Positions 1-22,221 of a stretch of 22,221 nucleotides of DNA are shown here, in pieces (positions within the stretch are counted from its first letter, which is position 1; each line of letters opens with the position of its first letter). The translations under genes and the position numbers were made by a program. The stretch spans positions 1 to 22,221 of the forward strand of contig JBBQPO010000071.1 in assembly GCA_038217285.1 (NCBI GenBank), read 5' to 3'. This DNA comes from Chthonomonadales bacterium (GTDB lineage: Bacteria > Armatimonadota > Chthonomonadetes > Chthonomonadales > Chthonomonadaceae). The notes beneath the pieces are model-generated. The model saw only the letters and a program-made list of their open reading frames with translations. It had not been told where the DNA came from and made no database searches.

Positions 1-2104
1 AGTTCGAGGGACTCGGATCGCTGGTATCGTAACGATAGATCGCAGGCAGCACCCACTGATGCAGGCTGTCGGAAGCGCTGACAATATCGGTCAGTTGCAG
101 TGAATCGGTGTCGAACACCTGAAGTTCCGAGAACTTGAACCCATAGACATAAGGATCCGCGATCTGGTTCCAGCCCTGCGGGTAGTTCAACTTCAAGGTC
201 GTCGCGTTCGGCTGCACCTGATTGGCCAGCGGCGGATACTTCGCCGCATCGATGACGAAGGACGCTGTGGTGGGCAACTGACTGCGTACCCAGTAGGCTT
301 GCCCGATCTGGAACGTGTTCTGCGGCTCGTATTGGGCTGTCACCGGATTATAGCGCAGGATATCGATCACCGGCGGGTTGGTCGGCAGACCGAGAATTTC
401 GGATGGCGTGGCGCTGCCGGTAAGCAGCGGGAAGGATGCCATTTTGAACAGGCCCTGTGTCGTCCCATTACTTAGCAGTGTGAGGGCGGCAGGGGCCGGA
501 ACCTCGATGGTTTTCTGGACACTCTTACCGTTACCAAGGTTGGGCGACGCGGTCACCGTATACTTTAGTGGCCCATTTATCCTGGAGGTGCTGTCCACCT
601 GGACGGTCCAACTCACCGTGCCTTCGGTGCCGGCATCGACGTTATTGATGGTCTTTGTCGCGGATTCTCCCGGCGCCAGAATCAGTCCCTTGGGCAGATC
701 GAGGAACAGGTTGACCGGCCCGATGGATAGTCCACCGGACTGGGTCAGATCGGTCAGGTTCTGCACGTAGGCCGAAATCTGGAACGGGCTGGGAGTCGCA
801 GTGACCATCGGTGCGGCGGGATTGGTACGATCTGTATGGAAGCTCAGGGCCGCCGGGCCGCTGACGCTCAACGCCAGTGGCGCTCCGAAATTGTTCTCCG
901 TATCGGCGTTACCGACATAGGTAATTCGCTTCAGATCCTGTCCCGGTGCTACGGACTGCTCGTCCCAGAAGACCACGACGCTGCCATCCGTAGATTTCGA
1001 GGACACATTCTTGTCCAGGATCACATTCGGATTGGGTCTGAAGTTCCAGACCTGGTCGAAGTTGCGCACCTTAGCGCCGTTTACCTGATTAAACGCGTCG
1101 AGGAACTCCGTGCGTCCGTAAGCGAATCGCGACGGTACGGTCGGTTCGTTCTGCGATCCGGATAGGGGCTTCAGCGTACCGCGTACGGTGTGAAGAAGCG
1201 CCGGCGTCGTATTGGTTGCCGGGCTGATCTGAACCGACGTCTCCCACCGATCCGGAACCTGTGCGCCGGAAAGCAGGGTCTCATGGTGAAGATAGGGCTG
1301 ACCCGGCAGGCGAAGCGGACCATCGATCTCCGCGCCAAAGGTGATGGTCGGCTGTACGTTGATATCCTGCACAAAGGCAAGACCTACCGTATGCGTCTGA
1401 CCAGCGCTGTTGTTGACGATATCGAACTGGAATCGCACGGTGTCATGCACGAAGGTAGCGACCATATCGATCTCTACCTGAGGATCGTAGGTGGCACTGA
1501 AGCCGCCGCCTGCGGCGTCGAGTTTGTGCGCGATTGTCTGCCAACTGGCTTCGATATGATTGCCGACGACGGTCGGTAACTGGAGCCAGACGCCGGTACG
1601 CTGGTCGCCGAAAATATAGTCGCCGCCTGTGGTTCCGGTAGTACCACCACCGCCGTTGCCACCGCTTCCGCCGCCACCGCCGCCAACACCCCCGCCCCCG
1701 CCCCCGCCGGTGCCTCCGGTGAGGCCGGGAAGTATGCCGCCGCCGCCATCGACGCGCACGAAGAGCCAGGATCCGTAGAATACCTGCAGCAGACCCGGAG
1801 GATCTGTAGGAACCAGTGGTGCAGGCCAGAGCAACAGGTTACCGAAACCGGCTCCGCCTGGGTCCGAGGGGCTGTTCGGCGTCGAGATCAGCCCGATAGA
1901 GCCCGCGACGTTCTTCCCCAAGCCGACAAAGATACACAGATAAGCATTGCATAGTCCGTTGTAACAGTCGTCCGGAGTCTTAATACAGTCGTTGCCCGGC
2001 AACTGCGCCTCGGCGCCTCCGCCTGTCAACAGCAGCGCGCCACTTAAGAAAAAGAGGCTAGCCAGCGCTTTCACGCTGCGCATAATCTTAGAATTCCACC
2101 CCAT
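1..2104 (-). CDS. Large secreted protein, 3'-truncated by the window edge (>701 aa): signal peptide, 4-Cys N-terminal segment, Gly-rich linker, NEW3/CARDB-like Ig domain, start of the shared GWN C-terminal module
   Basis: Not in the ORF track because there is no stop in the window. Manual minus-strand translation is open from ATG 2104 (GGAGG at 2113-2117, 8-nt spacer; alternative ATG 2083) to base 2: MGWNSKIMRSVKALASLFFLSGALLLTGGGAEA|QLPGNDC...FQISAYVQNL...LDLPKGLILAPGES...VSWTVQ...FQIGQAYWVRS...YPQGWNQIADPYVYGF...VLPAIYRYD. The last part aligns by eye with the two upstream paralogous modules. Confidence 0.9.
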   Translation of the reverse strand, partial: MGWNSKIMRSVKALASLFFLSGALLLTGGGAEAQLPGNDCIKTPDDCYNGLCNAYLCIFVGLGKNVAGSIGLISTPNSPSDPGGAGFGNLLLWPAPLVPTDPPGLLQVFYGSWLFVRVDGGGGILPGLTGGTGGGGGGGVGGGGGGSGGNGGGGTTGTTGGDYIFGDQRTGVWLQLPTVVGNHIEASWQTIAHKLDAAGGGFSATYDPQVEIDMVATFVHDTVRFQFDIVNNSAGQTHTVGLAFVQDINVQPTITFGAEIDGPLRLPGQPYLHHETLLSGAQVPDRWETSVQISPATNTTPALLHTVRGTLKPLSGSQNEPTVPSRFAYGRTEFLDAFNQVNGAKVRNFDQVWNFRPNPNVILDKNVSSKSTDGSVVVFWDEQSVAPGQDLKRITYVGNADTENNFGAPLALSVSGPAALSFHTDRTNPAAPMVTATPSPFQISAYVQNLTDLTQSGGLSIGPVNLFLDLPKGLILAPGESATKTINNVDAGTEGTVSWTVQVDSTSRINGPLKYTVTASPNLGNGKSVQKTIEVPAPAALTLLSNGTTQGLFKMASFPLLTGSATPSEILGLPTNPPVIDILRYNPVTAQYEPQNTFQIGQAYWVRSQLPTTASFVIDAAKYPPLANQVQPNATTLKLNYPQGWNQIADPYVYGFKFSELQVFDTDSLQLTDIVSASDSLHQWVLPAIYRYDTSDPSPSN
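1621..1750 (-). repeat. Gly-rich low-complexity tract (DGGGG...GGTGGGGGGGVGGGGGGSGGNGGGGTTGTTGG) inside the CDS
   Basis: Runs of ccgcc/ccacc on + translate to poly-Gly in the minus-strand frame. Confidence 0.85.
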
Positions 2105-2361
2105 GAGGAAGTCCTCCCTGTGAACTTGGTTCGTTGTGGGTATGGCCGGGGGAGCCACCATACCGGAGTCTGGGAGCCAGCAATCTGGCTCGAAGACGAA
2201 CTGCACCCGTCCTCGCATCCGTCGCATTCCAGAGAATACGGGGTTCGGAAGCTGGGGGGACCGCGATGTGTCGCCCTACAAACATTGGGGAACTGAGGGA
2301 TCCGGCTTTGAACTGCTCTCCCATTAGCAAGCCGCTCGCACGCCGCTCAGTTGGTATCTCA

Positions 2362-2408: not shown

Positions 2409-5400
2409 CTATCTGGTGATCGTCAGCGGACGAATCTCCCGGCTGACCGTGCCATCCGGGGTAATAGCCCTCAGTTGGAGGAGGTAGGTTCCGGCGGGCA
2501 CGTTTGCCCCTCGGGTGTCCTTCCCATTCCAGACCTGACGGTTGTCACCGCTGCTGACAGCGCGCGTCGAGCCGATCTGCGCGAGCGTCTGCCCATTGTA
2601 ACCGATAATGGCTACTTCCACTCGGGCGTCCTGAGAGACAGTATACCCGATTTCGTAAGCCCCTGCCCCGCGCGATCCCGCCACACGCGGCGGGTTGACG
2701 ACTATGTTCGTCAGCACGGCGCGCCCGCCTGCATTGGTCGGATGGGCGGTCAACGTAAACTCCCTCGTGACCGCCTGATGTCCCGAGTTGAACTGGTAGG
2801 CGGCTTGATGGCGAAGGTCGATCTCCTGGCCGGTCGCTTTGTCCAGCATAGTCAGTCGATAGGACTTTGGCAGCGTACTGATATTGGGCCAGCGAAGGGT
2901 GATATCGGTATTGGGCTGATCGGTCATGACAACCACATCCCATGTCTTTACGCCGCCTGCCACCTGCAGGTCCTGCGCGTAGACCGCCCCTTTACCGTCC
3001 TTACGCGTCATCCCTAGCGTAATATAGGGAGAGGGATGCGGAGGCTTCGGCGCGAGCGAACGGGCACTGTCAACGGCAGAGCGCGTGACCCCGATGAAGT
3101 TATACCCGTCGTGGAGGTCATTGCCGCTCGCCTCGAGCTGCACGGTCCAACCGCCTCCACCGTGAATTCGCGGCGGCGTGTTCAGCGAGGCCGGGGTGGT
3201 CTTCGTACCAGCCCTGGTCATTCTGGCCGCGCGCCCCCCGAAACCGGAAACCGCGACCGGCGTGGTGATCATGGTCAGAATCGGATTCGTACTGGATGGA
3301 CCCTCCCGTTTGACAACGAAGATCCACTGACCTTCCCAGGGCTGGAGGTTACCCGCTGGCAGGTGTTCGAACTGATACTGCCCACCGACGTAGCGGTAGA
3401 TGAAGGGCAGGATCAAGTTCTTGTCCGCCGCCGCTTCCGCCGTAAGGCGGTTTCCGGACAGGTCCTCGAACTCGAGTCCATCAAACGGTACCGCGAATTT
3501 GTACGGGTTCCCTACCATATTCCAGCCTTCGTGCAGCGGAATTCGGAAGGAAGTGGTATCGAACGACTGTCCATACGTGACGACCGAAATGGGGGTCTTT
3601 GTCAGGAGGAAGTAACCAACCCCAAGCGGGGAAGTATCCCCCGAAATATTTGCGTTGTTCGGCACCGGCTTATATTCGGTCGGGTAAAGGGAGGCTGCAT
3701 TTTCCACAGTGTCGGTACCATTAAAATAGATGTAATCGAGTGGCGGCAAGGTGCCGCTGTTTGCATCCCTTTTGTACAGAAAACGAGCCAGGATAACCTT
3801 CTTGTCCAGCAGATCCCCAGCTTCGCGCGTTTTACCGGTAGGAGAGTCGATCGCACTCTCGGCATAGGGAATGGAGACGAGCGAAGTCCCCGGAGGGAAA
3901 ATGTGCGACTGAATGGAGAAGGTGCGCGTATCAGTTGCGGTGATACCGAGATTGACGTTGGCTCCCGATATAACGATTTTGTGGTTACCCTGTGCAGTAG
4001 AAGGGAACGCATAGCGGAAGGAGATTACGTAATGTGGGACTAACCCAGTCGTATTACCGGACTCGATCTGATTCCGAAGGAATGCCGAGGTTAGCACGAT
4101 TTGCTGAGGGGTACCTGGGTCGATAGTCACATTGAGTTGATCCACCGGAACGCCCGAAACCTTGAATCGGATGTTGGGTTTCAGTGTTTCTACAGGCGGG
4201 GGCGGGAAGCCCGTAGGATCAGTAGAGACGCCGGTCGCGTTGATTCCGAGGGGATCCTCGGTAATGATGCTAACCGATACGCGCAACAGAGCAGCGTAGG
4301 CATCTAGCACGCCATAGCCATAGTGTGGGTCCGGCAAACTCGTTAGGGCCAGTGCTTTGCGGTTGGCGGTGTCGAACATGGCCTGCTTTGCTTGATCGGG
4401 CGTGACTCCAGGGACTGACATCAGCAACCCTAAGACAGCGGTAACGTGGGGTGCCGCAAAGGAAGTACCGTCTTCGAAGGCGTATTGGCTGTTCTGTTTA
4501 AGGAGCAGAACCCCGTTTGCGTCGACGCCCGTGAAACCAGCATCCCCGCCGGGCGCAGCGATATCCACCTTACCAAATTCCGAGTAACTGGTTGTCTTAC
4601 CATTGATGTCGGTTGCGGCAACGGAAATGATGTGGGCATAGAAAGCAGGAGTGCTCGTGGGGTTGCCTTGATCCCCAAAGTTTCCTGCGGATGCCACCAT
4701 CAATACTCCCGCGTCCGTGAGCGCCTTAGTCGCTACGTAGTCCGGAGCATTGACATCATTTGGATTGCCGAATGGACGCCCGTAACTCATATTCACAGCG
4801 ACGATGTGAAAACGATCCTTATTGGCCAGAAGATATGCATAAGAATTAAGTATGCCTGGTCCAGACAGGAAGCCTGGCAAGCCAGCAGCCCCAACCTTGA
4901 GAGCCAGACACTTAGTGTTCGTCCAGTCGACGCCAGCGATACCCTTTGCATTATCTGTAAGGGCGAAGGCCACTCCGCTTGTTGACACTCCGTGATCATC
5001 ACCTGTCGCGGTGATATCAGTAGTGTTGTTGCCGAAGTCGTAACTACCCGAAAGGAACTGCCCTAAGGCATCTTCGTGCTTCGGATCGAAACCGCTGTCG
5101 ATCCAGCCGAGATTTACGTCGACCGCTCCTTTCTGAAGTAGCCACGCTTGAGGCATGCGAATCTGATTAAGTGCCCACTGTTCCGGAAACCGCGGATCGT
5201 TAGGGATCAGCTTAGTCGGCGCTGCTACCGGTGCTTGCATTGTCTTATAAAGCACACTAGCGTTGACCCAACGCACATTTGGGTCCATTTTCAGTGTAGA
5301 CACTGCGTCGGCTGTGTCTTGAAGTGTAGCTCGCTTGACCGGTAGCTCAATGACATAGCAGTCTTTGAGTAAAAGTGGAGTCACGGAGGCCGAAGTCACT

Positions 5401-5585
5401 TTGGCAGCAAGAGCCGTTACAACATCCTTGCCAGTGCCAGGTTGCATATAAAGAATTATTTCACCGGGAACGGTCGCGGGGTTTTTCGCGGCCTGTCCGA
5501 ACACACCAGTGGCGGCTCCTGTTGAGAAGAGAGCCGCGAACGCCATTGTCCGGCCGAGATGCCGGAGCCTGGGCTTATGTATCAT
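2409..5585 (-). CDS. Secreted S8 family (subtilisin-like) serine peptidase with prodomain, shared GWN module and C-terminal FlgD Ig-like domain (~1058 aa)
   Basis: Catalytic motifs WIDSG (Asp), DDHGVSTSG (His), ASAGN (oxyanion Asn), GTSFAAPHV (Ser); VPGEIIL prodomain and PNDPRFPEQWAL junction; YGYGVLDA domain end; C-terminal VWNGKDTRGANVPAGTYLLQL. Start moved from 5630 to ATG 5585 (AAGGAG at 5594-5599, followed by a signal peptide ending VFG|Q). Confidence 0.93.
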   Translation of the reverse strand: MIHKPRLRHLGRTMAFAALFSTGAATGVFGQAAKNPATVPGEIILYMQPGTGKDVVTALAAKVTSASVTPLLLKDCYVIELPVKRATLQDTADAVSTLKMDPNVRWVNASVLYKTMQAPVAAPTKLIPNDPRFPEQWALNQIRMPQAWLLQKGAVDVNLGWIDSGFDPKHEDALGQFLSGSYDFGNNTTDITATGDDHGVSTSGVAFALTDNAKGIAGVDWTNTKCLALKVGAAGLPGFLSGPGILNSYAYLLANKDRFHIVAVNMSYGRPFGNPNDVNAPDYVATKALTDAGVLMVASAGNFGDQGNPTSTPAFYAHIISVAATDINGKTTSYSEFGKVDIAAPGGDAGFTGVDANGVLLLKQNSQYAFEDGTSFAAPHVTAVLGLLMSVPGVTPDQAKQAMFDTANRKALALTSLPDPHYGYGVLDAYAALLRVSVSIITEDPLGINATGVSTDPTGFPPPPVETLKPNIRFKVSGVPVDQLNVTIDPGTPQQIVLTSAFLRNQIESGNTTGLVPHYVISFRYAFPSTAQGNHKIVISGANVNLGITATDTRTFSIQSHIFPPGTSLVSIPYAESAIDSPTGKTREAGDLLDKKVILARFLYKRDANSGTLPPLDYIYFNGTDTVENAASLYPTEYKPVPNNANISGDTSPLGVGYFLLTKTPISVVTYGQSFDTTSFRIPLHEGWNMVGNPYKFAVPFDGLEFEDLSGNRLTAEAAADKNLILPFIYRYVGGQYQFEHLPAGNLQPWEGQWIFVVKREGPSSTNPILTMITTPVAVSGFGGRAARMTRAGTKTTPASLNTPPRIHGGGGWTVQLEASGNDLHDGYNFIGVTRSAVDSARSLAPKPPHPSPYITLGMTRKDGKGAVYAQDLQVAGGVKTWDVVVMTDQPNTDITLRWPNISTLPKSYRLTMLDKATGQEIDLRHQAAYQFNSGHQAVTREFTLTAHPTNAGGRAVLTNIVVNPPRVAGSRGAGAYEIGYTVSQDARVEVAIIGYNGQTLAQIGSTRAVSSGDNRQVWNGKDTRGANVPAGTYLLQLRAITPDGTVSREIRPLTITR

Positions 5586-5670
5586 CTTAACAACTCCTTC
5601 ATTCCGGGGCGGTTGGAAGGTTGCCGCCACGCATGGATTGTCTGCGCGGAGGGAGCGAGACCGGAAGCAG

Positions 5671-5729: not shown

Positions 5730-7973
5730 CTAGTTGCGTTTGCGCCGGGCGCCCAGCAGGATCTGCTGAGGCGTCAGAACGGTCGTATGCAGGGTCGCCG
5801 CGCCGCGCTGTGTAGAGCCGACGCCAAGAACAGGGAACTCCGCACGGCTGTGGCCGGCGTAGATCTTGTTCAGCAGATTTGCCGCCCGACTTGGTCCGGG
5901 GGGACAAGGCGGCAAGGGGGCAGGAGTGAAGGAGAAGACCTGGCTATAGACAAAGCGGAAGGTCGTATCTCCATCCGACGCGTTCTGCGTGATCGCATTG
6001 ATCGGCCCTGGTGTATCGCCATCATGACGAGCACCGACACGGTAGTAGAGTACCGGCGGCGTAGTTGTGCCTGTGGTCGAACCTGAACAGGTGCTGGACT
6101 TGACGAAAGCACCGAACGTCGGATCGCGCAGCAGTTCGGGTGACTGAGTCAGATCGAGTGGGTTCGGAGTCGTCTGGGCCACGCCGTCCGCGTTGGGCGA
6201 GGAGGAGATCAGCGGATACCGGAAGATCAGGCTCGGATTGGAAAACGTGCGGTCGGTCGAGACTTCGACCTGGAACACGTCGGCTCCGTTACGGCTCGTG
6301 AACTGCGGTGCGAACTGGCGCACATTGACCGAGGCCGTGGTGTTCGCAGGGGAAGTCAGCAGCACAGGATTGATCGGCGTGGACTGGCCGGAGCGCGAAG
6401 GATCGGTTTCGATACACTCGAACCCGCCGCTGCCGCCACCCTGGCCGCCACCGCCACCGCCATTGCCGCCACCGCCACCGCCATTGCCGCCGCCACCGCC
6501 GCCGTTGCCGCCGCCACCGCCGCCGTTGCCGCCGCCGCCATTGCCGCCGTTAGTGCCGCCGGTACTCGGAGACTGGCGCAGAATGATCGCCGTCACGAGG
6601 TAGTGGTAGCTGGAGCCGGGTCTAAAACCGGTGTCCAGGGTGCCGACGATTGTCAGAGTACCACAACCGCCAGTGGTGCCATTGTTACCATTGCCGCCGC
6701 CCACGGGGTTGCCGTTACCGGCTCCGATCAGTGGTGCGAGGCCACTGGCGTAGGGGAAGAAGGGAGAGCCATGATCCAGGAACTCATGTACGGTGGAAGA
6801 CTGAACGCCGATAGGAACAGAGCCGCCATTCGTCGTAGTGCCGTTGCCGCCCCCGCCCGCAGACTGGCCGAAGGGGAAGTCGGGCTCCCGGTAGATCTTG
6901 TACTGCTGCACATTGCCCTGGCCGAAGATGTTGTCGTTCCAGCGAACACGCACGATCGGCGCGTTGTTGAGAACGCCAGCCTCTGCTGTGACGGACGTGG
7001 TCGAGGCCTGCCCGCCGCGGGACGCCTGCGCAACCAGCACACCCAGGCCGATGGCCGCGATGGTGCTGCTCACGGCCGTCAGATTGAACTGCGCGCCTTT
7101 GCCCGTAGGCTTTTGGAGAGTTGGAGACACGATCTCGACGGGGGGCTGATAGAGCACGCGGGCTCCGTCTTCGGGTCGAATTCCGCCGACATTGTTGATG
7201 ATTTCGGCCTCGGAGTCGGTGGGATAGACACGCGCCACTCGAACTCTGCCGACCTCAAGCTTCTTGCCGTTGACGCCTTCACGCAGAATAACCACGTCGT
7301 CGCCGATCTTGACGCCGTCACGAACACCCTTGTTAAGGATGACCATGTTGGTTTCGATGCCGATAACGGTCGCAGTGGCAATCTGTCGTCCCAGTATCTG
7401 ACGAACGACATCCTGCGCGGCGTCGCTGACGCCCTTATTGATCAACTCCTCGGGATCGCTGGGTTCGCCAGGACGAGGGGCCGTCGTCGTCTGCACATAG
7501 CCGCCGTTGATATACTCCTTGGAGGCGACTTCACGCAGGTTGGTGGCCAAAGACACGCGAACGCTTTTGCCACGGCTGGCGCCGGCGGCTACCTGACCTT
7601 CGACAATTACGTCTGCCGTCAGGTTAGTGGCGATCCGAACTAAATCGCTGGGGCTGAAGTTGGCAGGCTGGTTCGGATTGCTGGGAACTTTGATCCCGAG
7701 CGACACGGCCTCTTTGAGAACCTCAGAGTTCTGAAAAACGCTAAAACGCCCCTGTCCGGCGTTGACCATCTCGTTGTAGATGGCGGCCGTCGCGGTAATG
7801 CCCAGGTTCGGGTTGCCGGGCGATTTGTTAACGATATCGGCGATAATTACCCGGAGTGGCTGTTGCGTCTGCGCTCTGGCTGCGCGACCTGCCATCAGGC
7901 ACGGCGCGACCATCGCCAGGGTCACAAGCCAGGCGGTGGCGCGGGCTATCGGACTCCTACGAATAGTTTTCAA
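5730..7973 (-). CDS. Secreted protein with N-terminal CsgG/TolB-N-like alpha/beta domain, FlgT C-terminal-like beta domain, and Gly-rich FN3-like region (747 aa)
   Basis: TTG start with GGAAGGGAG upstream; signal peptide ending ARA|Q; RVIIADIVNKS...RIATNLTADVIVEGQV...LREVASKE resembles CsgG/FlgO-type folds; ATVIGIETNMVILNKGVRDGVKIGDDVVILR...VGRVRVARVYPTDSEAEI resembles FlgT_C; VRVRW...YKIYR...GSSYHYLVTAI resembles FN3. The CDS is solid; the domain calls are by eye. Confidence 0.75.
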   Translation of the reverse strand: MKTIRRSPIARATAWLVTLAMVAPCLMAGRAARAQTQQPLRVIIADIVNKSPGNPNLGITATAAIYNEMVNAGQGRFSVFQNSEVLKEAVSLGIKVPSNPNQPANFSPSDLVRIATNLTADVIVEGQVAAGASRGKSVRVSLATNLREVASKEYINGGYVQTTTAPRPGEPSDPEELINKGVSDAAQDVVRQILGRQIATATVIGIETNMVILNKGVRDGVKIGDDVVILREGVNGKKLEVGRVRVARVYPTDSEAEIINNVGGIRPEDGARVLYQPPVEIVSPTLQKPTGKGAQFNLTAVSSTIAAIGLGVLVAQASRGGQASTTSVTAEAGVLNNAPIVRVRWNDNIFGQGNVQQYKIYREPDFPFGQSAGGGGNGTTTNGGSVPIGVQSSTVHEFLDHGSPFFPYASGLAPLIGAGNGNPVGGGNGNNGTTGGCGTLTIVGTLDTGFRPGSSYHYLVTAIILRQSPSTGGTNGGNGGGGNGGGGGGNGGGGGGNGGGGGGNGGGGGGQGGGSGGFECIETDPSRSGQSTPINPVLLTSPANTTASVNVRQFAPQFTSRNGADVFQVEVSTDRTFSNPSLIFRYPLISSSPNADGVAQTTPNPLDLTQSPELLRDPTFGAFVKSSTCSGSTTGTTTPPVLYYRVGARHDGDTPGPINAITQNASDGDTTFRFVYSQVFSFTPAPLPPCPPGPSRAANLLNKIYAGHSRAEFPVLGVGSTQRGAATLHTTVLTPQQILLGARRKRN
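6424..6561 (-). repeat. Imperfect 21-nt tandem repeat encoding (NGGGGGG)n
   Basis: Units such as ccgccgccaccgccgccgttg (two identical in tandem) and ccgccaccgccaccgccattg; protein GGTNGGNGGGGNGGGGGGNGGGGGGNGGGGGGNGGGGGGQGGGSGG. Confidence 0.9.
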
Positions 7974-8155: not shown

Positions 8156-11100
8156 TTACCGTCCTACGGTGAGCGGAACGATCTGGCGGACCGTATGACC
8201 TTCGCTGTCCTGAGCGCGGACTTCGATGGTGTAGAGGTCACTCGGCACCGCCTGCCCACGATTGTCCTTCATATCCCACACCACTTCCGAGGTTCCGGCG
8301 GCGGCGCGCGTTCCTGCGCCGACGGTCCGGATCAACTGTCCGCCCTTCATGATGCCGACCTGGATGGTGGCATCGGCGGTCGTATTGTAGGAGATGCTGA
8401 CCGAACCGGTCGTTCCTGCAGCGCGGCCCGGATGGTACTGCGCGGACAGAGAGGACAGGCTCAGCTTTTGCCGTTGCGCCGCACGGGTCTCCAGGTGGAA
8501 GTGCCGTACAACGCCGGTGGCTCCGGCAGCCATGGTGTAGTTGCTGCGCCCACGCAGATCCAGGGTCGTCTTGGAGTCCACATCCGTAAGGATAAGGTCT
8601 TTGCGACGGCCTACCTGGGCCAGATTAGGCCAGTTCAGGGTCACCGGTTCGTTGGGCACAGTGGAGGTGACGGTGAAGTCCCATTTCTGTGTCAACGAAA
8701 CCGCCGAGCGGACATCGACACTGTAGTGTCCCGCTTTGTCGGCCCATTCAGGATGATCGAAGGCCAGAGTGACGTCTTTCTTCGAGACGGCAGGGGGAGC
8801 CTCCAGCTTGTAGCGATCGTAGGTGTCGAGGGCGGCGCGGGTCTGTCCGACGGTTGCCGGGGCAGACTTGCGGCTGCCGACCTCTGCCACCATGTTGAGC
8901 ATCCAGCCGTCGGTCTGGCGATTGCCAGCGGTGAGCACTCCACGGGTGTCGTGTGCCGCACGATCCTGGCGCGCATTCGGGCTGATGATCAGGGTGATGA
9001 TCGCCCCCGAGGTGCGTTGCCCGACCTGGCGGTTGTCGAAGGCCCGGATCCAGTAGCCCCGGTAGGGATCGAGCGTATAGGCGACCTGATAGGTCCCGCT
9101 CGAATATGTCCAGAGCGCCGCCCCGAGGGACGGGTTCGAGCCGCTCTGCGCGGTCAGGACATCGAGGAGCTGTCCGTCGGCGCCCACTACCTTGAGGTTC
9201 AGGAAGTTGACGGGGTACGGGAACGGTTCGCCGATCAGGTTCCAGCCCGGTTTGAGGGCGATACGGAACGAGCCGTCCTGCGTGTTGTAACCCGCATGCG
9301 TCGGATCGGGTGCGACCGTGTCTTTCGCTTCCACTCCCTTGATCGTCAGCGCCAACGAGGTATTGCCGTTGGAATCAGCGAGGAAGTAGCCGCGGCCCAG
9401 ATGGAACGTGTCCGCCGGCGGAGTCGGGAAGAACACGTAGCTTGCGGTCTCATTCAGCCAGGTGATGAAGGAGAACGCCCCGCTGCTGACGTCCGAGGCC
9501 GGCACTCCGAAGAGAGTGGCGACATTGCTGTTGGCAATGCCGGCGTACTCGTAGGGCGCCGATACCAGAGAGAGTCGCGGCGAACCGTCTATCGGGTTGA
9601 CTCCACTGTCGAACGTGTTCAACGGGTCGATGGTGAAGTTGACGCCGGTCGTCTCCGCTCCCGTATTGATGAGCACGGTCTGCGTCGGGGACGGATCCGG
9701 CAGGTAGCCATCTTTGCGTGTCCCGACGATGACGTTGCCGCCGGCAGGAACATTGGTCACCACGTAGTTGAACACGTAGCTCCCCTTGGTCTGCGTTGCT
9801 CCGGTCGTCACCTGTCCGAGCACGGTTCCGTTCGCGTCTACCACCGCGACGGTGGCTCCGGGAACCGGAATGCCCTTGGACGTCTGCACCAGACCGGAGA
9901 GGCTGCCCGGCGGAATCGGAACCAGCGCGAAGTTACCCAGCGCGTCGTTGACGAAGTCTACGACCGTGTTCGTCTTGCTGTTGACCGTAGCGGTCTTAGG
10001 TCCTGCCAGTGCGAAACCAGGCGCCGTCGCCGTCACCTGATAGACACCGACATCGACGATGGGCATCGAGTAGGTTCCGTTGGCCCCGGTCACAGCAGTA
10101 TAGACTTTGTTTCCTACGACCGCAGTGACCGTCGCTCCCGCCAGCAGCGAGGACGGGTCGCTGGCCGGTTTGTCGCTCCGGCGCACGGTTCCACTAATGG
10201 ATCCGGGAGCCAGGGTGAGGGCGAAGTCTACTATTCCGGTGACGTTCTGACTGGGCGCGACGAGAACCGCCGGCTTAGCTCCCGCCTCCGGGCCACCGTA
10301 GCTCGACGGAACGCTTCCGCCGTAGCCCAGTGTGTCCACGTTGCCGGTAGGCGCGAGCGGCGTGCTCACCATATAGCCGGTAGTGGTGTCGCTTGGAACG
10401 TTCTTTATGATATAGGTGCCATCGGTCTGGGATTTGGCCGTGAAGACTTCCCCAGTCGCGATGTTTTTCGCGATAACGATGACGCCCGCTACGGGAGCCT
10501 TCGTCGATTGCACCGTGATGGTCCCGGCAATGGAGCCGGGTTGAGCCTCGGTCAGGAAGAGGTCGGCCCGCACCGAATACCCGCCATGAAAGACCCCGGC
10601 GACCCCATGCTGGGTCAAGAAACGGGCTTTGGCGGCATCGATCGTATACGTGCCGGTCGCATCGAGGCCGGGGAGCGTAAAGGTCCCATCGGATTGAGTC
10701 ACCGCTGTCGAAGCCGTTTTACCCGTATGGTTGGAGACGGCTCGGACGAAGACACCCTTGAGCGGCTGCGTAGCGCCGGTCGAACCGTTGATCGAACGGA
10801 TACTCCCGTAGATACGTCCGGTCCGCAGGTAGTCTCCGATGTTGTGCATGATCTCCGCACGCCGGTTCTGCAGGATGATCGGGCCGGGTCCTGCACCGGG
10901 CGGGACGAAGTACTCAGGGTTGATCCCTTCCAACCCGACCGGAATATAGACTACCTTGGAGACGATAGGCGCTGCCGTATTGTCGGTAACCCAGACGATG
11001 GCAAACGAGCCGCCGATCTGCCAAGTCGCATCGAAGTCCGACACATCAGGTGTGCTGGGCGCGGTGAACGCTATCGCGTCCACAGAGACCTGATTCAGCG

Positions 11101-14100
11101 CACAGTAGTCCTTCGGGAGCATGTACTCATCCCCTTTATAGAGGGGCTTGGTAGACGGCGGTTCGTTCGGATTCGTAGGTCCCGGGTAGTTATGGAACGT
11201 GTCGTACCACGTCTCCGTGATGATCGGATGCGTGCCGCGTCCGCCAACGGGGTTCATGGTGCTGCCCCCAATAATGGGCGGGAAATTCCCGACGCTGTCA
11301 CCTACGTAAGTGGACTTGAAGACCCCGTTCAGAAACGCATTGGTCGTGCCGGGCTGTCCCAGAGAGACGCCGAAGGCCACATCCTCGCCGTTCAGGAACA
11401 TACGCCCACCGGTTTTGACGAAGTTCGTCAGCCGCACCTGGGTGTCGGTGTCGGTGATCGTACCGGGTCCGACGAACAGATCGCCGGAATAGGGCGAGTG
11501 CCAGACGATGCACCGTTCCGCTACGAAGACCGAGCGCGGACCTTTGCCCCCGGCGATGACGTCGGCAGGCTGAACTTCGATATGGCCCTTATAGGTGTTG
11601 AGAACCACATCGGGAACCGGACCACGGCACTGAACACGCCAGATGTCGTAAAGCCCGGTGATGTTATTCCCTCCCGGATCTACGGAGAGGACATCGCCAT
11701 AGGCGTTTTGACCTAGAGTCGTCAGGAAGTTCACCAGCGGAGCTTTGACGCCGCCTGTGAGCGCCGAGGTCGGCCACAGGAACTGAGCGAACTCTGTCAT
11801 CCAGCTTTCTGTAGCCGTACCGGAGTAGCTGTTGTTGAAGAAGGCGGTACCGGCTCCGAACTGAGTGTGGAAGAAACCCTGCCCGGAATCGTAGTCGTTC
11901 ACGTAGAGGACGCCGTTGACGCCCTGGAAGGGCTTCGTGGTAAATCCCCAGACGTTATCGTAGATTTTCCAGTTCGTTTTGAAAGTCGAAGCAGCGGGCA
12001 CAAAAGGATCCAGGGCCTTGTCGCGCACAATGACGTCCAGGATCCAGTCGCTCGGCAGAGCGGCGGGGGTGTTCCAGGTGTTGGTGTAGACGCCGTCGCT
12101 GGCGGTTTCGCCTTCCGGCTCATGTCCGCCTTTGGAGATGGGCCCATCGTCCCACATACGCAGCCAGTAACTGCCGTCGTTCTGGTAGTCACTGCCGGGT
12201 GTCGCCAGACCGGTCGTGTCCTGGACATAGTCCGGCGGATTGGTGCCGCCGCTGAAAGCAGTGACATCATCCACTCCGGCCAGATACTGGTTGAAACTCG
12301 GCCAGTTGGGCCTGACGGTGACATTGTATCTGGGGTTCCCACCTGGTTTCCGGAACTTGCCGCCCAGAGCATTGCTATACGGGTTGATGGCCTGTGAATC
12401 CACTTCGAAGGGTGCATCGATGACCTTGGTGCCCGCATCCAGGAAGCCCAGATTGGGGGTCGTATAGAAGACCTTGTGCTCGAAGCCGTCGCGGCTCTTT
12501 TGACTGCTTTCCGGGCATTTGATCTGTATGAAAACAGATTCCACGCCGGACTCATAGTCCACCACGCGTGTCCGGAAGCGCACTTTGTCGCCTGCCGAGA
12601 CTTCACGCACGGCGGTATCGGGAGCCGTGTCGCGGGAGACATGCACGATCTCATTGTTCTGGATATCGTACTTCAGCAGCGTGGGCGCATTGAGGTCGAG
12701 GATGGTCGACGCCCAGATGTTGAGTTCCGTCCCCGCAACCGCCGGGGTCAGTCCACGATCGCTCTGGAACACGATCCGATAGCTGCTGTTATACTGCGGC
12801 CACGTAGGATTGTCCTCGTTCGACACAAAGTTCGGGTCGAAACGAGAGGCAGGATCGTTAGGATCGATCGCCGTGCCAGGGGTGCTGGTACGCAGCTTGA
12901 GCGCCGGATTCCCCACGGATTCCTGTGTCGAGACAGTGAAACTGCCTGGAGCGCCGCCCGCCTGGATCCGAGTATGCATGAAATAGATGTCGAAGGTTGT
13001 CTTGACGCCGTTCGCGATTCCATCGCCGTTGCTGTCGGCCCGATTGCTGGCGAAAGCCAGCCGATTCTCGGAGACCGTGGGCGCGCCCGGCTCGTTGGGA
13101 ATGATGCCCAGCGGATCAGGGCGGGTAGTGCTCCAGGCAGGATTCTTATTGCTGCTTATCGGCACACCGAGGATCGAAGAAGAGTTCGTGACCTGCTTGG
13201 GATTCGGAACCGTCGGAACGGGCGTAATGACCCATATATCGGTCTGAGCCGGGTTTGCCGTCAACGATCCGGCGGTGGTCGGACCGCCGCCCGAGAAGGC
13301 TTTGCCGTTCGTGGTGAAGGCGATCAGGCGCGTATCCGGCGACCAGGCCGGAGCGGTATCGTTGCTGATACCGGTCGTCAACAGGGTGATGACACCGGTC
13401 TGCGAGTCGACTTTGTAGATGTGGTAAGGCTGCCCTGCCCCGCCGACCTGACCGGCAAAGACGATTTCGCTGCCGCCGGGTGCCCAGCTCGGATGGCGAA
13501 CATCCGTGAAGACGATGTTGGAGGCGTTGTTCTTCGTCAGCCCTAGCGGAGCGCCGCCGTTGCTGATATCGTAGACGAACAGGTTGAACCCTGCCGTCCT
13601 CGGCGTATCGAGACCGGTAGCCAGACTAAGGGTTCCGCCGGAGACATAGGCGACCTTGCTCCCATCAAAAGAGATGTTGGGCTCGATCTGGTTGATCGTG
13701 TCGGGGAGCAGTTGGGTGATGCCGGAACCGTCCGGGAACATTCGATACAGATTGAATGTCTGGTTCGCGTTCTCCGCCGTATTGGTGTCGCTCACGCGGT
13801 CGCTGTCGAAATAGATGTACTTTTCGTCCGCACTGAAGTTGGGATGTTCATCTTGCGACGGCGCCGGGACGTTGGAGTACTGCTGGGAAGGATCCTGCTT
13901 GGTCAAAAGTATCGTCTGACGAATGACGGCAGGGTCACCAGGCGCGCGCCCTGGGCTGAATTTGCCCTGCAGGCGTGATGGGAGTTTACGGTGCGTCATA
14001 TACGCGGGAATGTAGTCCATTTTACCGGCGTATTTGTGTTGACCGGCGATGGGGCCTGCAGTCGGCAGTCCGTTCGGCTGGCCGTTGACGTTTCCGTTGC

Positions 14101-14197
14101 CGCGTGCCTGGGCAGGCACACTTTGCGGAAGGGTCAACGCTAGCAGTCCGGAGAAAAGCGCGAGCAGGACAGCTGTGTTGGTTTTGGCTCTGTTCAA
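8156..14197 (-). CDS. Giant secreted multidomain protein (~2013 aa): TolB-like PD40 beta-propeller, choice-of-anchor-X-like motif, GATase-like alpha/beta segment, four carboxypeptidase-regulatory-like repeats, shared GWN module, FlgD Ig-like C-terminus
   Basis: PD40 motifs HPNFSADEKYIYFDSDR, EPNISFDGSKVAYVS, HPSWAPGGSEIVFAG, APAWSPDTRLIAFTTN, NPAWS, NPTW..RIVFQSDR; repeats starting GRIYGSIR, PGSIAGTIT, PGSISGTVR, PGSLSGLVQ; C-terminal VWDMKDNRGQAVPSDLYTIEV. Start reassigned to in-frame TTG 14197 (AGGAGG at 14209-14214, then a signal peptide) because the ORF-track start lies upstream of the promoter. Confidence 0.88.
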   Translation of the reverse strand: MNRAKTNTAVLLALFSGLLALTLPQSVPAQARGNGNVNGQPNGLPTAGPIAGQHKYAGKMDYIPAYMTHRKLPSRLQGKFSPGRAPGDPAVIRQTILLTKQDPSQQYSNVPAPSQDEHPNFSADEKYIYFDSDRVSDTNTAENANQTFNLYRMFPDGSGITQLLPDTINQIEPNISFDGSKVAYVSGGTLSLATGLDTPRTAGFNLFVYDISNGGAPLGLTKNNASNIVFTDVRHPSWAPGGSEIVFAGQVGGAGQPYHIYKVDSQTGVITLLTTGISNDTAPAWSPDTRLIAFTTNGKAFSGGGPTTAGSLTANPAQTDIWVITPVPTVPNPKQVTNSSSILGVPISSNKNPAWSTTRPDPLGIIPNEPGAPTVSENRLAFASNRADSNGDGIANGVKTTFDIYFMHTRIQAGGAPGSFTVSTQESVGNPALKLRTSTPGTAIDPNDPASRFDPNFVSNEDNPTWPQYNSSYRIVFQSDRGLTPAVAGTELNIWASTILDLNAPTLLKYDIQNNEIVHVSRDTAPDTAVREVSAGDKVRFRTRVVDYESGVESVFIQIKCPESSQKSRDGFEHKVFYTTPNLGFLDAGTKVIDAPFEVDSQAINPYSNALGGKFRKPGGNPRYNVTVRPNWPSFNQYLAGVDDVTAFSGGTNPPDYVQDTTGLATPGSDYQNDGSYWLRMWDDGPISKGGHEPEGETASDGVYTNTWNTPAALPSDWILDVIVRDKALDPFVPAASTFKTNWKIYDNVWGFTTKPFQGVNGVLYVNDYDSGQGFFHTQFGAGTAFFNNSYSGTATESWMTEFAQFLWPTSALTGGVKAPLVNFLTTLGQNAYGDVLSVDPGGNNITGLYDIWRVQCRGPVPDVVLNTYKGHIEVQPADVIAGGKGPRSVFVAERCIVWHSPYSGDLFVGPGTITDTDTQVRLTNFVKTGGRMFLNGEDVAFGVSLGQPGTTNAFLNGVFKSTYVGDSVGNFPPIIGGSTMNPVGGRGTHPIITETWYDTFHNYPGPTNPNEPPSTKPLYKGDEYMLPKDYCALNQVSVDAIAFTAPSTPDVSDFDATWQIGGSFAIVWVTDNTAAPIVSKVVYIPVGLEGINPEYFVPPGAGPGPIILQNRRAEIMHNIGDYLRTGRIYGSIRSINGSTGATQPLKGVFVRAVSNHTGKTASTAVTQSDGTFTLPGLDATGTYTIDAAKARFLTQHGVAGVFHGGYSVRADLFLTEAQPGSIAGTITVQSTKAPVAGVIVIAKNIATGEVFTAKSQTDGTYIIKNVPSDTTTGYMVSTPLAPTGNVDTLGYGGSVPSSYGGPEAGAKPAVLVAPSQNVTGIVDFALTLAPGSISGTVRRSDKPASDPSSLLAGATVTAVVGNKVYTAVTGANGTYSMPIVDVGVYQVTATAPGFALAGPKTATVNSKTNTVVDFVNDALGNFALVPIPPGSLSGLVQTSKGIPVPGATVAVVDANGTVLGQVTTGATQTKGSYVFNYVVTNVPAGGNVIVGTRKDGYLPDPSPTQTVLINTGAETTGVNFTIDPLNTFDSGVNPIDGSPRLSLVSAPYEYAGIANSNVATLFGVPASDVSSGAFSFITWLNETASYVFFPTPPADTFHLGRGYFLADSNGNTSLALTIKGVEAKDTVAPDPTHAGYNTQDGSFRIALKPGWNLIGEPFPYPVNFLNLKVVGADGQLLDVLTAQSGSNPSLGAALWTYSSGTYQVAYTLDPYRGYWIRAFDNRQVGQRTSGAIITLIISPNARQDRAAHDTRGVLTAGNRQTDGWMLNMVAEVGSRKSAPATVGQTRAALDTYDRYKLEAPPAVSKKDVTLAFDHPEWADKAGHYSVDVRSAVSLTQKWDFTVTSTVPNEPVTLNWPNLAQVGRRKDLILTDVDSKTTLDLRGRSNYTMAAGATGVVRHFHLETRAAQRQKLSLSSLSAQYHPGRAAGTTGSVSISYNTTADATIQVGIMKGGQLIRTVGAGTRAAAGTSEVVWDMKDNRGQAVPSDLYTIEVRAQDSEGHTVRQIVPLTVGR

Positions 14198-14569
14198 GGC
14201 GAGTCCTACCTCCTGGTGATTCGCATCATTAAAAGCTGGCACGCTAAGGGGGAAAGCCTGCACTACCGGCGGTGGGGGATTACCGGTATGAGTGTATGAT
14301 AGTGTTCCATGGTGCCTGGAAACCGCCACCTTCTTAAACGCCGATCTGGGGGAGATAGACGGATAAGTATGGCGAACTACTTCCTGCGTCGAGAAGAACA
14401 GCGGAGTTTTCCGTCTGTCATTCTCTCCCCAGAGATCGAATGGTGGCAGGCAAACAGGACGCCACATCGGTGGTGATCCTGCGGACCTTTTCGATACTGC
14501 ACGTAGTTCGCGGGGGGTGGATCGGCGACGAATAGAAGGCGTTTTGGGTCTGACCCCTGTCAATTTCGA

Positions 14570-14608
14570 ATTATAGCATATTGGCGGAGACAACGCAAGC
14601 TTTTTTTT
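14570..14608 (-). promoter_or_regulatory. Sigma70-type promoter of the secreted-protein cluster
   Basis: TTGCGT (14598-14593), 17-nt spacer, TG-c-TATAAT (extended -10; hexamer 14575-14570), with an A8 tract just upstream of -35 (UP-like). Confidence 0.8.
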
Positions 14609-14729
14609 CAAAAGCGGCTTGAACGGTGCCGTCGTCGGGAAATGGAATGTTCCCTATTCCCGCTACAATCCTATAGACGCGGTGTCATACGCCATTCGGT
14701 CGAACCACACAAATGCATTTTCGAGAACT

Positions 14730-15344
14730 CTACAGGTTTTTCCTGCCCCGATTCAGGGACTGCCAGAGAGTTTCTACGGCGGCGTCCAACTGCGGCAGCG
14801 AGCCGTCGTTGACGAGGACGTGATCCGCACGGGCGATCTTGCGGTCGAGAGGCCACTGCGCCGCAAGACGTCGGTCGATCTCCGCCGGATCCAGGCCGTT
14901 ACGCTGCCGCAGGCGTTCTCTCTGTTTGGCTTCCGAGGCGGCCACGACGACGACCTCATCGAACCAGGTCTCCAGACCGCCTTCGTAGAGCAGAGGGATC
15001 TCAACGACAAGGAGGGCCTCGGAGGCCAGATCGCTTCGCGCCGCCTCGATCTGTGCGCGCAGCAGGCTGCGAATGAGGGGATGCAGAATCCGTTCGAGTC
15101 GGCGGCGGGCCTCGCTGTCGGCAAAGACGAGGCGACCCATACGGCCACGATCCAAGTCTCCCAAGGAGGTCAGCATCTCGGGGCCGAACTCTGCGGCGAT
15201 TCGGCGCAGGGCCGGCCCCTTGGAAACGAGAACGGCACGGGCGGCTTCATCGGCGCTGAACGTCACGGCTCCGCGCGCCGCCAGCAGACGGGTCACGGCG
15301 CTTTTGCCGGTCGCGATACCGCCGGTGAGGCCTATAAGGGGCAT
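14730..15344 (-). CDS. coaE: Dephospho-CoA kinase
   Basis: MPLIGLTGGIATGKS P-loop, ADEAAR, LDRGRMGRLVF, LERILHPLIR, EIPLLYE, RLRQRNG, ADHVLVNDGS. ATG 15344 preferred over 15368, which abuts the rpsA terminator. Confidence 0.96.
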   Translation of the reverse strand: MPLIGLTGGIATGKSAVTRLLAARGAVTFSADEAARAVLVSKGPALRRIAAEFGPEMLTSLGDLDRGRMGRLVFADSEARRRLERILHPLIRSLLRAQIEAARSDLASEALLVVEIPLLYEGGLETWFDEVVVVAASEAKQRERLRQRNGLDPAEIDRRLAAQWPLDRKIARADHVLVNDGSLPQLDAAVETLWQSLNRGRKNL

Positions 15345-15370
15345 AGCAGGGATTTTCCGGGCAGGCATGC

Positions 15371-15414
15371 AAAAGGGAGGCGGCTTCGGCAGTTGCCGAT
15401 CGCCCCCTCCCTTT
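15371..15414 (-). terminator. Intrinsic terminator after rpsA
   Basis: AAAGGGAGG (15372-15380) pairs with CCTCCCTTT (15406-15414), inner TCGGCA/TGCCGA stem, ends TTTT on the minus strand. Confidence 0.75.
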
Positions 15415-15428
15415 GGGTCGTCTCGAGG

Positions 15429-21321: not shown

Positions 21322-21485
21322 CACGGACCTCCCAGGAGAACTTTACGGGCTAAATTTGAAATAAGTGCGGGGTTAGTGAGTCGGGTCTTCCTCGGAACCG
21401 AAAACTTCGGGGACGGGGCGGCGGGTCGGCAGACAGGCCGGAGGCGCGGAGACACCCGTTGGCCCTGCGCATGGAGACTTCCTCT

Positions 21486-21515
21486 ATTATATGTCCCGTA
21501 TGCCCTCATTGTCAA
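21486..21515 (-). promoter_or_regulatory. Consensus sigma70 promoter for secDF
   Basis: TTGACA (21515-21510), 18-nt spacer, TATAAT (21491-21486). Confidence 0.85.
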
Positions 21516-21603
21516 GCCGTGCCTGTCAGTGCCGCCCGTTTCTTCCTCACTGCCTTCCCGTCGACCGCGTCTAACCTCGAAATTTCCGCCCCTTTCGCGT
21601 CGT

Positions 21604-22082
21604 CTACCAGTGGTTTTTGCCTGCCACGACGTCGCCAACACTGTTCTGATTGACGAAGTAACGGGCGTTCGGATTGGAACTCCTCGCCTGTCTGGGGTCG
21701 TCGATAGGCGTACCGCCATCATCTTTGCCATCCGGGCCGACGCTGTAGAGAACGTAACTCTCGCCCTTGAGGTGATACTTGAACGTTTCCTGTACGCCAA
21801 AAGGGTCGTCCGGAAGCTTCTTCAGATACGAAGGCGCAAGTTCGGGCAACAATTCCGGGTAATGACCGTGTTCCAGCCGAAAAGCGTGGAGCGCCAGCGC
21901 GAGGAGCAGCAAACCGTTCTGGGTTTCGCTCTCGACATCCTTGAGTTGGCTCTGCGTAAAGACGGGCAGCAGAGAGCGATTAATTGGATCCGTCGGCAGG
22001 CGCGGCGGAGGCAAATGAAGGCCGTACGGCTGCCGTGCCAATTGGGAGTTCTCGTCCATATACGTCGTATAGTTGTTCATGA
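21604..22082 (-). pseudogene. 3' remnant of a hypothetical gene with GspG/T2SSG-like C-terminal motif, interrupted by an IS66-family element
   Basis: LLLLALALHAFRLEHGHYPELLPELAPSYLKKLPDDPFG...YVLYSVGPDGKDDGG is a C-terminal motif; no RBS, signal or prepilin leader; in-frame TAA two codons upstream of ATG 22080 lies inside the IS terminus. Confidence 0.75.
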
Positions 22083-22221
22083 GTTACTGTCTAGCCTGGA
22101 GCGACAGGCTCGGGCGATCCCCGAAAGACGCCTTCCAGAGCGGTCAGGATATTCTTGCCCTGTTTGCGTAATGTCGAGAGATAACTGCGCAGACGACAGA
22201 AACCCTCGGCACCCGGCAAGG
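22083..22221 (-). mobile_element. Right end of an IS66-family insertion sequence (ISBst12-like group), continuing beyond the window
   Basis: Transposase C-terminus followed at once by GGCTAGACAGTAAC (read inward GTTACTGTCTAGCC), similar to the GTAACT-type ends I recall for this group. Confidence 0.75.
22091..22221 (-). CDS. IS66 family transposase, C-terminal 42 aa (5'-partial)
   Basis: Manual translation LPGAEGFCRLRSYLSTLRKQGKNILTALEGVFRGSPEPVAPG* matches the IS66 C-terminal pattern GAxxFCRxRSYxSTxRKQG; not in the ORF track. Confidence 0.8.
   Translation of the reverse strand, partial: LPGAEGFCRLRSYLSTLRKQGKNILTALEGVFRGSPEPVAPG

Follow-up and report, generated by a model that had tools for sequence, protein, structure and literature searches.

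Gene content of the window

The stretch analysed here (the window) is 22,221 nucleotides of contig JBBQPO010000071.1 from a Chthonomonadales bacterium of the phylum Armatimonadota. It carries a run of minus-strand genes in which three encode proteins that end in the same carboxy-terminal (C-terminal) module. In window order, the run comprises the genes for P0003, P0001, P0004 and P0002, followed by coaE, rpsA, an AI-2E transporter gene and secDF. P0001 is an S8 protease, P0002 a giant protein, P0003 a third protein at the left edge of the window, and P0004 an LpoB-like protein; residue numbers below refer to these translations. Read by eye, all four begin with a basic-then-hydrophobic N-terminal stretch that resembles a Sec signal. 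Armatimonadota are a widespread and little-studied phylum, for which we know of no phylum-specific surface or secretion apparatus. The genes that carry the module and the parts of the module are as follows (Ig, immunoglobulin; aa, amino acids; ORF, open reading frame; HMM, hidden Markov model).

2409..5630, minus strand: gene for P0001, a thermitase-type subtilase (Pfam Peptidase_S8, E = 1.6e-33 over residues 174-440)
2412..3893, minus strand: copy of the shared C-terminal module carried by the S8 protein (494 aa, P0001 580-1073; stop codon 2409-2411)
3579..3893, minus strand: N-domain repeat unit A (module 1-105, SLVSIPY ... LGVGYFL)
3249..3560, minus strand: N-domain repeat unit B (module 112-215, GWNMVGNPY ... 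PWEGQWI)
3150..3257, minus strand: linker joining the N-domain to the middle domain (P0001 792-827; disordered at 3201-3242 in the model)
2724..3149, minus strand: middle Ig-like beta-sandwich (module 249-390)
2412..2723, minus strand: terminal FlgD-type Ig domain (module 391-494, ending ..SREIRPLTITR; terminal Arg codon 2412-2414)
8156..14611, minus strand: gene for the giant protein P0002 (ORF of 2151 aa)
8159..9580, minus strand: module copy in the giant protein (474 aa, module HMM 2e-137; terminal Arg codon 8159-8161)
2..2227, minus strand: gene for the third carrier, P0003, truncated at the edge of the window (units A and B occupy its residues from about 592 on, window 2-454)

The S8 protein consists of a signal-peptide-like N-terminus, a prodomain, the S8 domain, a spacer domain and the module. 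It belongs to PF00082, and its Asp, His and Ser motifs are present (IDSGFD, HGVSTSG and GTSFAAP, read by eye). The closest solved relative of the S8 domain is thermitase (E = 2e-24), followed by the subtilisins. A specificity of this protease for Arg was considered and rejected; its nearest solved relatives are thermitase and the subtilisins, not kexin-type enzymes. The ORF opens at 5630, and since the database copy (P0005) has 1058 aa, translation probably starts at M16 (5585).

The giant protein combines PD40/TolB-like propeller repeats with four CarboxypepD_reg domains and carries the module last. Its listed ORF begins at a TTG far upstream of a signal-peptide-like stretch (..TNTAVLLALFSGLLALTLPQSVPAQA) and its orthologues have 1720-2000 aa, so the real start probably lies about 130 codons further in. 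The third carrier probably starts at M42 (2104). Its passenger part contains a long Gly-rich run (GGGGILPGLTGGTGGGGGGGVGGGGGGSGGNGGGGTTGTTGG; window 1600-1760, minus strand, residues about 160-200), and the remaining 550 aa of passenger match no Pfam family.

The module is homologous in all three proteins

A preliminary description of the window, made from the sequence by eye, had proposed a shared module of about 480 aa at 2409-3895. All the peptide strings it quoted are present in the translations, and the homology it proposed is significant. The sole BLASTP alignment pairs P0001 665-1073 with P0002 1734-2151 at 29% identity over 445 columns (E = 9e-38), and the stretch ahead of it (SLVSIPY in P0001, SLVSAPY in P0002) was aligned by MAFFT. 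The placement was right overall but off by frame, as the 494-aa module occupies 2412-3893 and the stop codon 2409-2411. The length holds for P0001 and P0002, whose tails of about 410-495 aa align, but not for distant copies, whose shared core starts near module residue 85.

The left-edge protein P0003 is cut off within the module. Its last residues match P0001 at E = 5e-7 (60 aa) and P0002 at E = 7e-5 (111 aa), and it matches the module HMM at 3e-25. The preliminary description had named the missing end of this protein as one place where its proposal could fail. Orthologues of the third carrier are about 990 aa long, and 24 of the 26 listed finish in ..P-x-x-x-x-R; the other two (760 and 885 aa) have different ends and look truncated or shifted. 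One orthologue with 79% identity (P0204) aligns with P0001 693-1073 at E = 2e-44. In its full-length orthologues, the third protein does end in a FlgD-type Ig domain with a terminal Arg, and this check thus upholds the proposal.

Domain anatomy and predicted structure

The module consists of a duplicated all-beta domain of about 215 aa (the N-domain), a disordered linker of about 20-35 aa, an Ig-like sandwich and a FlgD-type Ig domain. An AlphaFold2 model of the 494-aa module, built on an alignment of 82 rows, is all-beta with a mean predicted local distance difference test score (pLDDT) of 89.7 and a predicted template modelling score (pTM) of 0.81. It places the N-domain at 1-215, a disordered linker with pLDDT <50 at 218-231, the middle sandwich at about 249-390 and the last domain at about 391-494. 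The last domain is made up of the strands between 394 and 492, the final one spanning 483-492.

Modelled alone, the N-domain reaches a pLDDT of 91 and a pTM of 0.88. Its two-copy nature, suggested earlier by eye, is supported by hhalign, which aligns unit A with unit B at 92% probability (E = 6.7e-7, 72 columns); four control comparisons with the other two domains stayed at or below 11% (E >= 0.0028). In it, G-x-s-M-i-S-x-P-y lies opposite G-W-N-x-I-G-x-P-f, L-x-R-W...Y opposite l-y-x-Y...Y, and G-x-G-Y-W opposite P-W-x-G-Y-W in the unit A to unit B alignment. Invariant aromatic residues of the N-domain are Y54, W124, Y173 and W190. A fold search returned no matches in the Protein Data Bank (PDB) at E <= 0.001, searches of Pfam and NCBIfam gave no family, and the sole matches in the Atlas were unnamed clusters (0.94) and named clusters below threshold (0.83). 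As it has neither a solved structural relative nor a catalogued family, the N-domain may be a new fold family. A relation to cupins or bicupins was not accepted as homology; the best matches are weak, with TM-scores of about 0.2.

The middle domain has invariant residues at W249, P284-P285 (KPP), W318, W335 and D351. The assignment of the last domain to the FlgD-Ig type is also upheld. Pfam FlgD_ig scored above its cut-off (27 bits) in eight of eight terminal 110-aa pieces, at 29.2-60.2 bits. For P0001, the score is 29.2 bits on the last 110 aa alone and 24.7 bits on the full protein, just below the cut-off, whereas the full P0002 scores 27.2. Against a solved FlgD, the module profile gives E = 3e-9. 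The last domain is thus a sequence homologue of the Ig domain of the flagellar hook cap (FlgD, PF13860), but it differs in lacking a flagellar context and in one extra strand that ends in Arg; the Pfam match in P0001 stops 17 residues before the terminus.

A fold search with the whole module found only generic tandem Ig/Fn3 matches, with TM-scores of at most 0.19. Among the best PDB matches are the S8 peptidase 8jmw, which forms fibrils (E = 1.3e-6), and the S-layer protein 7ptp, both weak.

Nearly all copies end in arginine

The last residue of the module is almost invariant. Arg closes all of 59 aligned sequences, as x-R or x-G-R. Across 80 genomic loci (described below), the module HMM recognises 213 ORFs, of which 199 are complete and reach its end; Arg is the terminal residue in 198 of the 199. 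The sole exception is a giant-type ORF (L023:2-3373) that ends in ..VRILDN. In 176 of the 199 complete copies, the HMM and the protein end at the same residue. Of 198 database proteins with a module that extends to the terminus, 190 end in Arg, four in Lys, two in Gln and two in Pro. A raw count of last residues in 140 new representatives, a set that includes eight FlgD-repeat proteins of other architecture as well as truncated entries, gave 116 Arg, eight Gln, four Lys, four Asn and others.

The residues ahead of the terminal Arg follow a looser pattern. Pro occupies position -6 in 155 of 196 sequences and Arg position -10 in 147 of 196, and positions -2 to -5 are variable, so that the last strand reads R-x-x-x-P-h-x-h-x-R. 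The preliminary description had taken the Arg-ended last strand for a possible recognition signal. This putative role fits both the near-invariance of the residue among homologues and the exact position of the stop.

A second arginine motif in the linker

The disordered linker carries a conserved [S/T/G/A]-R-[S/A] motif. R-[S/A] occurs in 197 of 212 linkers, against 102 +/- 6 expected from 500 composition-preserving shuffles (maximum 120), and the longer [STGA]-R-[SA]-[AVSGT] in 134 of 212, against 36 +/- 5 expected. Several of the 15 linkers without R-[S/A] have K-[AS] in its place. The P0001 linker contains GRAA (R800, codon 3231-3233) and TRAG (R806, codon 3213-3215), both within the segment with pLDDT <50. 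The P0002 linker contains DRAA (R1884, 8960-8962) and TRGV (R1890, 8942-8944).

We regard the linker Arg motifs as candidate processing sites. The residue ahead of the linker Arg is mostly Ser, Thr, Gly or Ala, and the residue ahead of the terminal Arg is mostly Thr, Val, Gly, Ala or Ser, so cleavage after the linker Arg would yield an end resembling the natural C-terminus. The preliminary description recognised the shared module, its duplication and the FlgD-type Ig domain; the linker motif, the restriction of the module to few carriers, the later start of the core in distant copies and the membership of the module in a conserved cluster are new here.

Distribution and carriers

An exhaustive HMMER search of 1.84 billion representatives returned 3415 module matches at E <= 1e-3, 1490 at E <= 1e-10 and 208 at E <= 1e-30. 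The best 150 matches nearly always extend to the last residues of their proteins, which range from 400 to 3038 aa. The widely common core is module 85-494, and distant copies begin near residue 85.

The carriers are few. The 132 module-bearing representatives comprise 42 S8-type proteins, 22 members of the third family, 11 giant-type proteins, 27 fragments and 30 others. A Pfam scan of 38 representatives found S8 in 10, giants with PD40 and/or CarboxypepD_reg in eight, and FlgD_ig only or nothing in 17; the three other architectures were Big_5/CopC, DUF3466 and Big_1/GH2_C5. As representatives fall mostly within three to five carrier families, the module appears to stay within a few families of a single conserved cluster instead of serving as a general tag. 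Among 131 candidates, no shorter protein matched the terminal 99 aa at E <= 0.001 in a search that needs common words; this weakly suggests that small proteins do not carry the terminal domain on its own.

Genomes were scanned with S8-type peptide patterns, and the 348 confirmed hits are therefore not a census of all module copies; the resulting 80 loci (L001-L080), taken with flanks of 10 kb, are centred on S8 orthologues because of these patterns. By their titles, 68 of the loci belong to Armatimonadota lineages (Chthonomonadales, Fimbriimonadales and others), 12 are called just 'bacterium' and none is assigned to another phylum.

In a FastTree phylogeny of 203 modules, the copies group by carrier: 70 of 70 S8-type, 50 of 50 giant-type, 57 of 59 third-family and 10 of 10 fifth-carrier modules fall into their own clades (supports 0.94-1.0). 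The terminal Arg is kept in all four clades. As the modules cluster by carrier, the tree indicates that the fusion to each passenger and the Arg end are older than the split of these orders. The fifth carrier is a protein of 2000-2600 aa encoded after the third carrier gene in 12 loci (L017, L020, L021, L028, L029, L032, L036, L037, L040, L043, L049 and L072; for example L036:14070-20132), and its modules form a clade of their own with support 1.0. By these comparisons the module has three passengers, and in some genomes four: the S8 protease, the giant propeller/CarboxypepD_reg protein, the family without a Pfam match and sometimes the 2000-2600-aa protein. The module is real, ancient and, by the titles of the loci, restricted to the phylum.

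One S8 gene, in L007 (L007:8221-11536), is split into two ORFs (520 and 579 aa) and looks like a frameshift or an assembly error.

The conserved gene cluster and its partner proteins

The module-bearing genes belong to a cluster with the order giant protein, LpoB-like protein, S8 protease, third protein, small protein and outer-membrane-protein (OMP)-like protein. The further genes of the window that bear on it are:

5730..7973, minus strand: gene for P0004, the cluster protein without the module, between the giant and S8 genes (747 aa)
14730-15368, minus strand: coaE, adjoining the giant gene upstream (Pfam CoaE, E = 6e-49)
15429-17111, minus strand: rpsA, upstream of the giant gene and next to coaE

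All 60 loci with at least 3 kb of sequence beyond the S8 gene have a module-bearing ORF as its immediate downstream neighbour, and 53 of these ORFs are recognisably of the third family. Directly upstream of the S8 gene, a P0004 homologue is present in all 57 loci with enough sequence, and upstream of this homologue a module ORF follows in 49 of 55 loci, 48 of them giant-type. CoaE-like ORFs stand at the same position in 26 loci, so the placement of the cluster beside housekeeping genes is also conserved.

P0004 starts with a signal-peptide-like stretch and also contains an N-domain similar to LpoB (E = 4.7e-4 in a profile comparison with solved LpoB) and a Gly-rich region; it has no Pfam match. 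Similarity to TsaP is weak (E = 0.025), as is a CsgG match of one P0004 homologue (E = 0.004). The protein contains a long Gly/Asn-rich low-complexity run (GGNGGGGGG repeats). Its tail is variable and ends in ..RGRKRN in close relatives and in ..ELPPSP or ..PPPPP in others.

Two more genes on the same strand follow the third carrier gene, each in 44 loci (for example L059:13987-14682 and L001:8428-10401). Both lie beyond the left edge of the window and are known from the 80 loci. The first encodes a protein of about 232 aa without a Pfam family, whose best PDB match (5t11) reaches only E = 0.16. The product of the second has about 650 aa and carries a Big_1/Invasin_D3 domain at its N-terminus; Big_1 was found in 22 of 22 members. 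It shows weak similarity to LptA/LptD_N (E about 0.04; two of 22 members by Pfam). Its end, ..SFDLTATRF, resembles the C-terminal signature of outer-membrane barrels. The Big_1 protein may supply the cluster's outer-membrane component or may be LptD-like. Passages of one study report genes for lipopolysaccharide and BamA in Armatimonadota (PMC5629042), so the phylum is probably diderm.

With its order kept across Chthonomonadales and Fimbriimonadales, this six-gene envelope cluster offers a testable handle on how these bacteria build their surface or populate it. A search of article full texts, with supplementary tables outside its scope, found no description of the module or the cluster.

Comparison with known C-terminal domains

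The closest parallel is the C-terminal domain of type IX secretion system (T9SS) cargo, types A and B. Both are Ig-like sandwiches at the extreme C-terminus of multi-domain Sec-exported proteins, including proteases, and both have a conserved basic residue in the last strand. In the relevant passages of PMC11285876, the T9SS domain is a 3+4 Ig sandwich whose last-strand motif, which includes a conserved Lys, is required for export, and C-terminal extensions are tolerated. The module likewise has a sandwich in the range of 70-100 aa at its extreme C-terminus (strands 394-492 in the model). It differs in that the Ig domain is just the last third of 410-495 aa, in that the chain stops at Arg and never runs past it, and in its host phylum and its few carrier families. 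Sections of three papers describe T9SS as a Bacteroidota system (PMC11285876, PMC11611037, PMC5445135). The secretion genes given in part of the Fimbriimonas (F. ginsengisoli) genome paper are those of the type II and type IV secretion systems, Tat and Sec, with T9SS not among them (PMC4072686).

No T9SS signal model reached its cut-off. For type A, a search of NCBIfam did not return TIGR04183 even at E <= 10, and Por_Secre_tail (PF18962) matched one of eight terminal pieces (E = 0.058, 14.1 bits, cut-off 27). For type B, CHU_C (PF13585) matched one of eight (E = 0.0016, 19 bits, cut-off 27), and TIGR04131 had no NCBIfam match. Since the models stay below cut-off, profile comparison indicates that the module is not a member of the T9SS C-terminal domain family.

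Other surface proteins offer partial parallels. LPXTG, PEP-CTERM and GlyGly-CTERM are C-terminal sorting signals with a transmembrane helix and basic residues at the end. The module has the basic end in common with them, but no hydrophobic helix was found in it; its last 12 residues alternate between polar and hydrophobic and form a beta-strand in the model. The C5a peptidases ScpA and ScpB and the Vpr fibrils of Bacillus, which are among the best fold matches, also place tandem beta-sandwiches after an S8 protease, but their TM-scores are at most 0.19 and their sequence identity to the module is 10-15%. To our knowledge, their tails are not common to unrelated neighbour proteins, and no obligatory terminal Arg has been reported for them.

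A possible address or anchor for envelope proteins

Because neighbouring secreted proteins carry a common module, and because the cluster is kept across the phylum, the module is probably an address or anchor at one place in the envelope. In the form that we favour, and to which we give about an even chance, it is a cluster-specific targeting or anchoring domain for a fixed set of envelope proteins and works like a T9SS C-terminal domain. The passengers would first be exported to the periplasm. The module would then serve as their common address or anchor and gather them at the same envelope site. Recognition would involve the terminal Ig domain with its free Arg C-terminus, probably by partners encoded in the cluster, and a cut in the linker after its Arg would create a second Arg C-terminus. 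The arrangement would be analogous to the T9SS domain, with unrelated signal models and probably unrelated machinery.

The module may then be a variant of the C-terminal address or anchor domains of Ig type. Should the tail be an address, proteins would be targeted to the outer membrane by a C-terminal Ig domain in a second, independent case, this one outside Bacteroidota, and the tail could serve as a surface-display tag in these organisms.

Several points weigh against targeting or anchoring. The module is very large for a signal, and unlike general sorting tags it is confined to few carrier families. In the model, the terminal strand (483-492) is an ordinary, integral strand of the Ig domain, and the role of the Arg could therefore be purely structural. 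The S8 domain is nearest to the broad-specificity thermitase and subtilisins and shows no sign of cutting after Arg. Finally, the homologies of the LpoB-like partner (E = 4.7e-4) and the OMP-like partner (LptA/LptD_N, E about 0.04) are weak.

Alternative explanations

The strongest alternative, which we consider possible but clearly less probable, is co-assembly. The homologous tails of three to five proteins would bind to each other or polymerise into one hetero-oligomeric surface structure, such as a fibre, a layer or a large protease complex, and the terminal Arg and the Arg end derived from the linker would dock into a neighbouring subunit. Such a structure would suit carriers that form a fixed set, always co-encoded in the same order, and paralogues that the tree suggests are ancient and inherited together. 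The matches to the fibril-forming peptidase 8jmw and the S-layer protein 7ptp point the same way, and part of one report describes the Vpr fibrils (PMC10657474). These fold matches are, however, of the generic tandem Ig/Fn3 kind with low TM-scores. Co-assembly also overlaps with anchoring and does not exclude it.

A more far-reaching proposal, which we hold to be rather doubtful, extends targeting to the whole cluster. The cluster would be an undescribed outer-membrane export and anchoring system found throughout Armatimonadota, analogous to T9SS and built from unrelated parts, with the tripartite module as cargo signal. Its parts would be the LpoB-like periplasmic proteins and the Big_1/jelly-roll protein with a barrel-type C-terminus. 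Cargo would be matured by cleavage behind the linker Arg, where the S8 protease of the cluster might act as the processing or sortase-like enzyme, and the new and the natural ends would both present the obligatory Arg C-terminus to the same receptor.

Alternatively, the tail may bind a ligand, with the N-domain and the Ig domains holding a substrate or envelope glycan in the manner of an array of carbohydrate-binding modules, in aid of what the enzymes do, and with the Arg as a mere structural cap. The invariant aromatic residues of the N-domain would suit such binding, as would its weak cupin/jelly-roll-like fold matches (best E = 4e-3, TM-scores of about 0.19-0.22) and the fact that all module domains are beta-sandwiches, like many binding modules. 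We consider it unlikely, since it leaves unexplained the exact stop at Arg in 198 of 199 copies, the R-[S/A] motif in the disordered linker and the restriction to one cluster with envelope-type partners.

That a T9SS of these bacteria reads the terminal Ig domain as a diverged form of the T9SS C-terminal domain is highly improbable: it would account for the shared position and fold class (a sandwich of about 100 aa with a basic residue in the last strand), the sub-threshold Por_Secre_tail and CHU_C matches and further weak matches to the C-terminal ends of PorU/PorZ (E = 1.5e-3 to 0.03) and PorU (0.12), but not for the lack of any signal model at cut-off, the Bacteroidota setting of T9SS, the secretion genes given for Fimbriimonas, the chain end that never passes Arg or a tag found on few families instead of dozens.

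Other open reading frames

Two plus-strand ORFs lie in the right part of the window. The first, of 327 aa (21241-22221), runs off the right edge and has no Pfam or NCBIfam family. The second, of 713 aa (14619-16760), is antisense to coaE and rpsA and has no family, and is therefore probably spurious.

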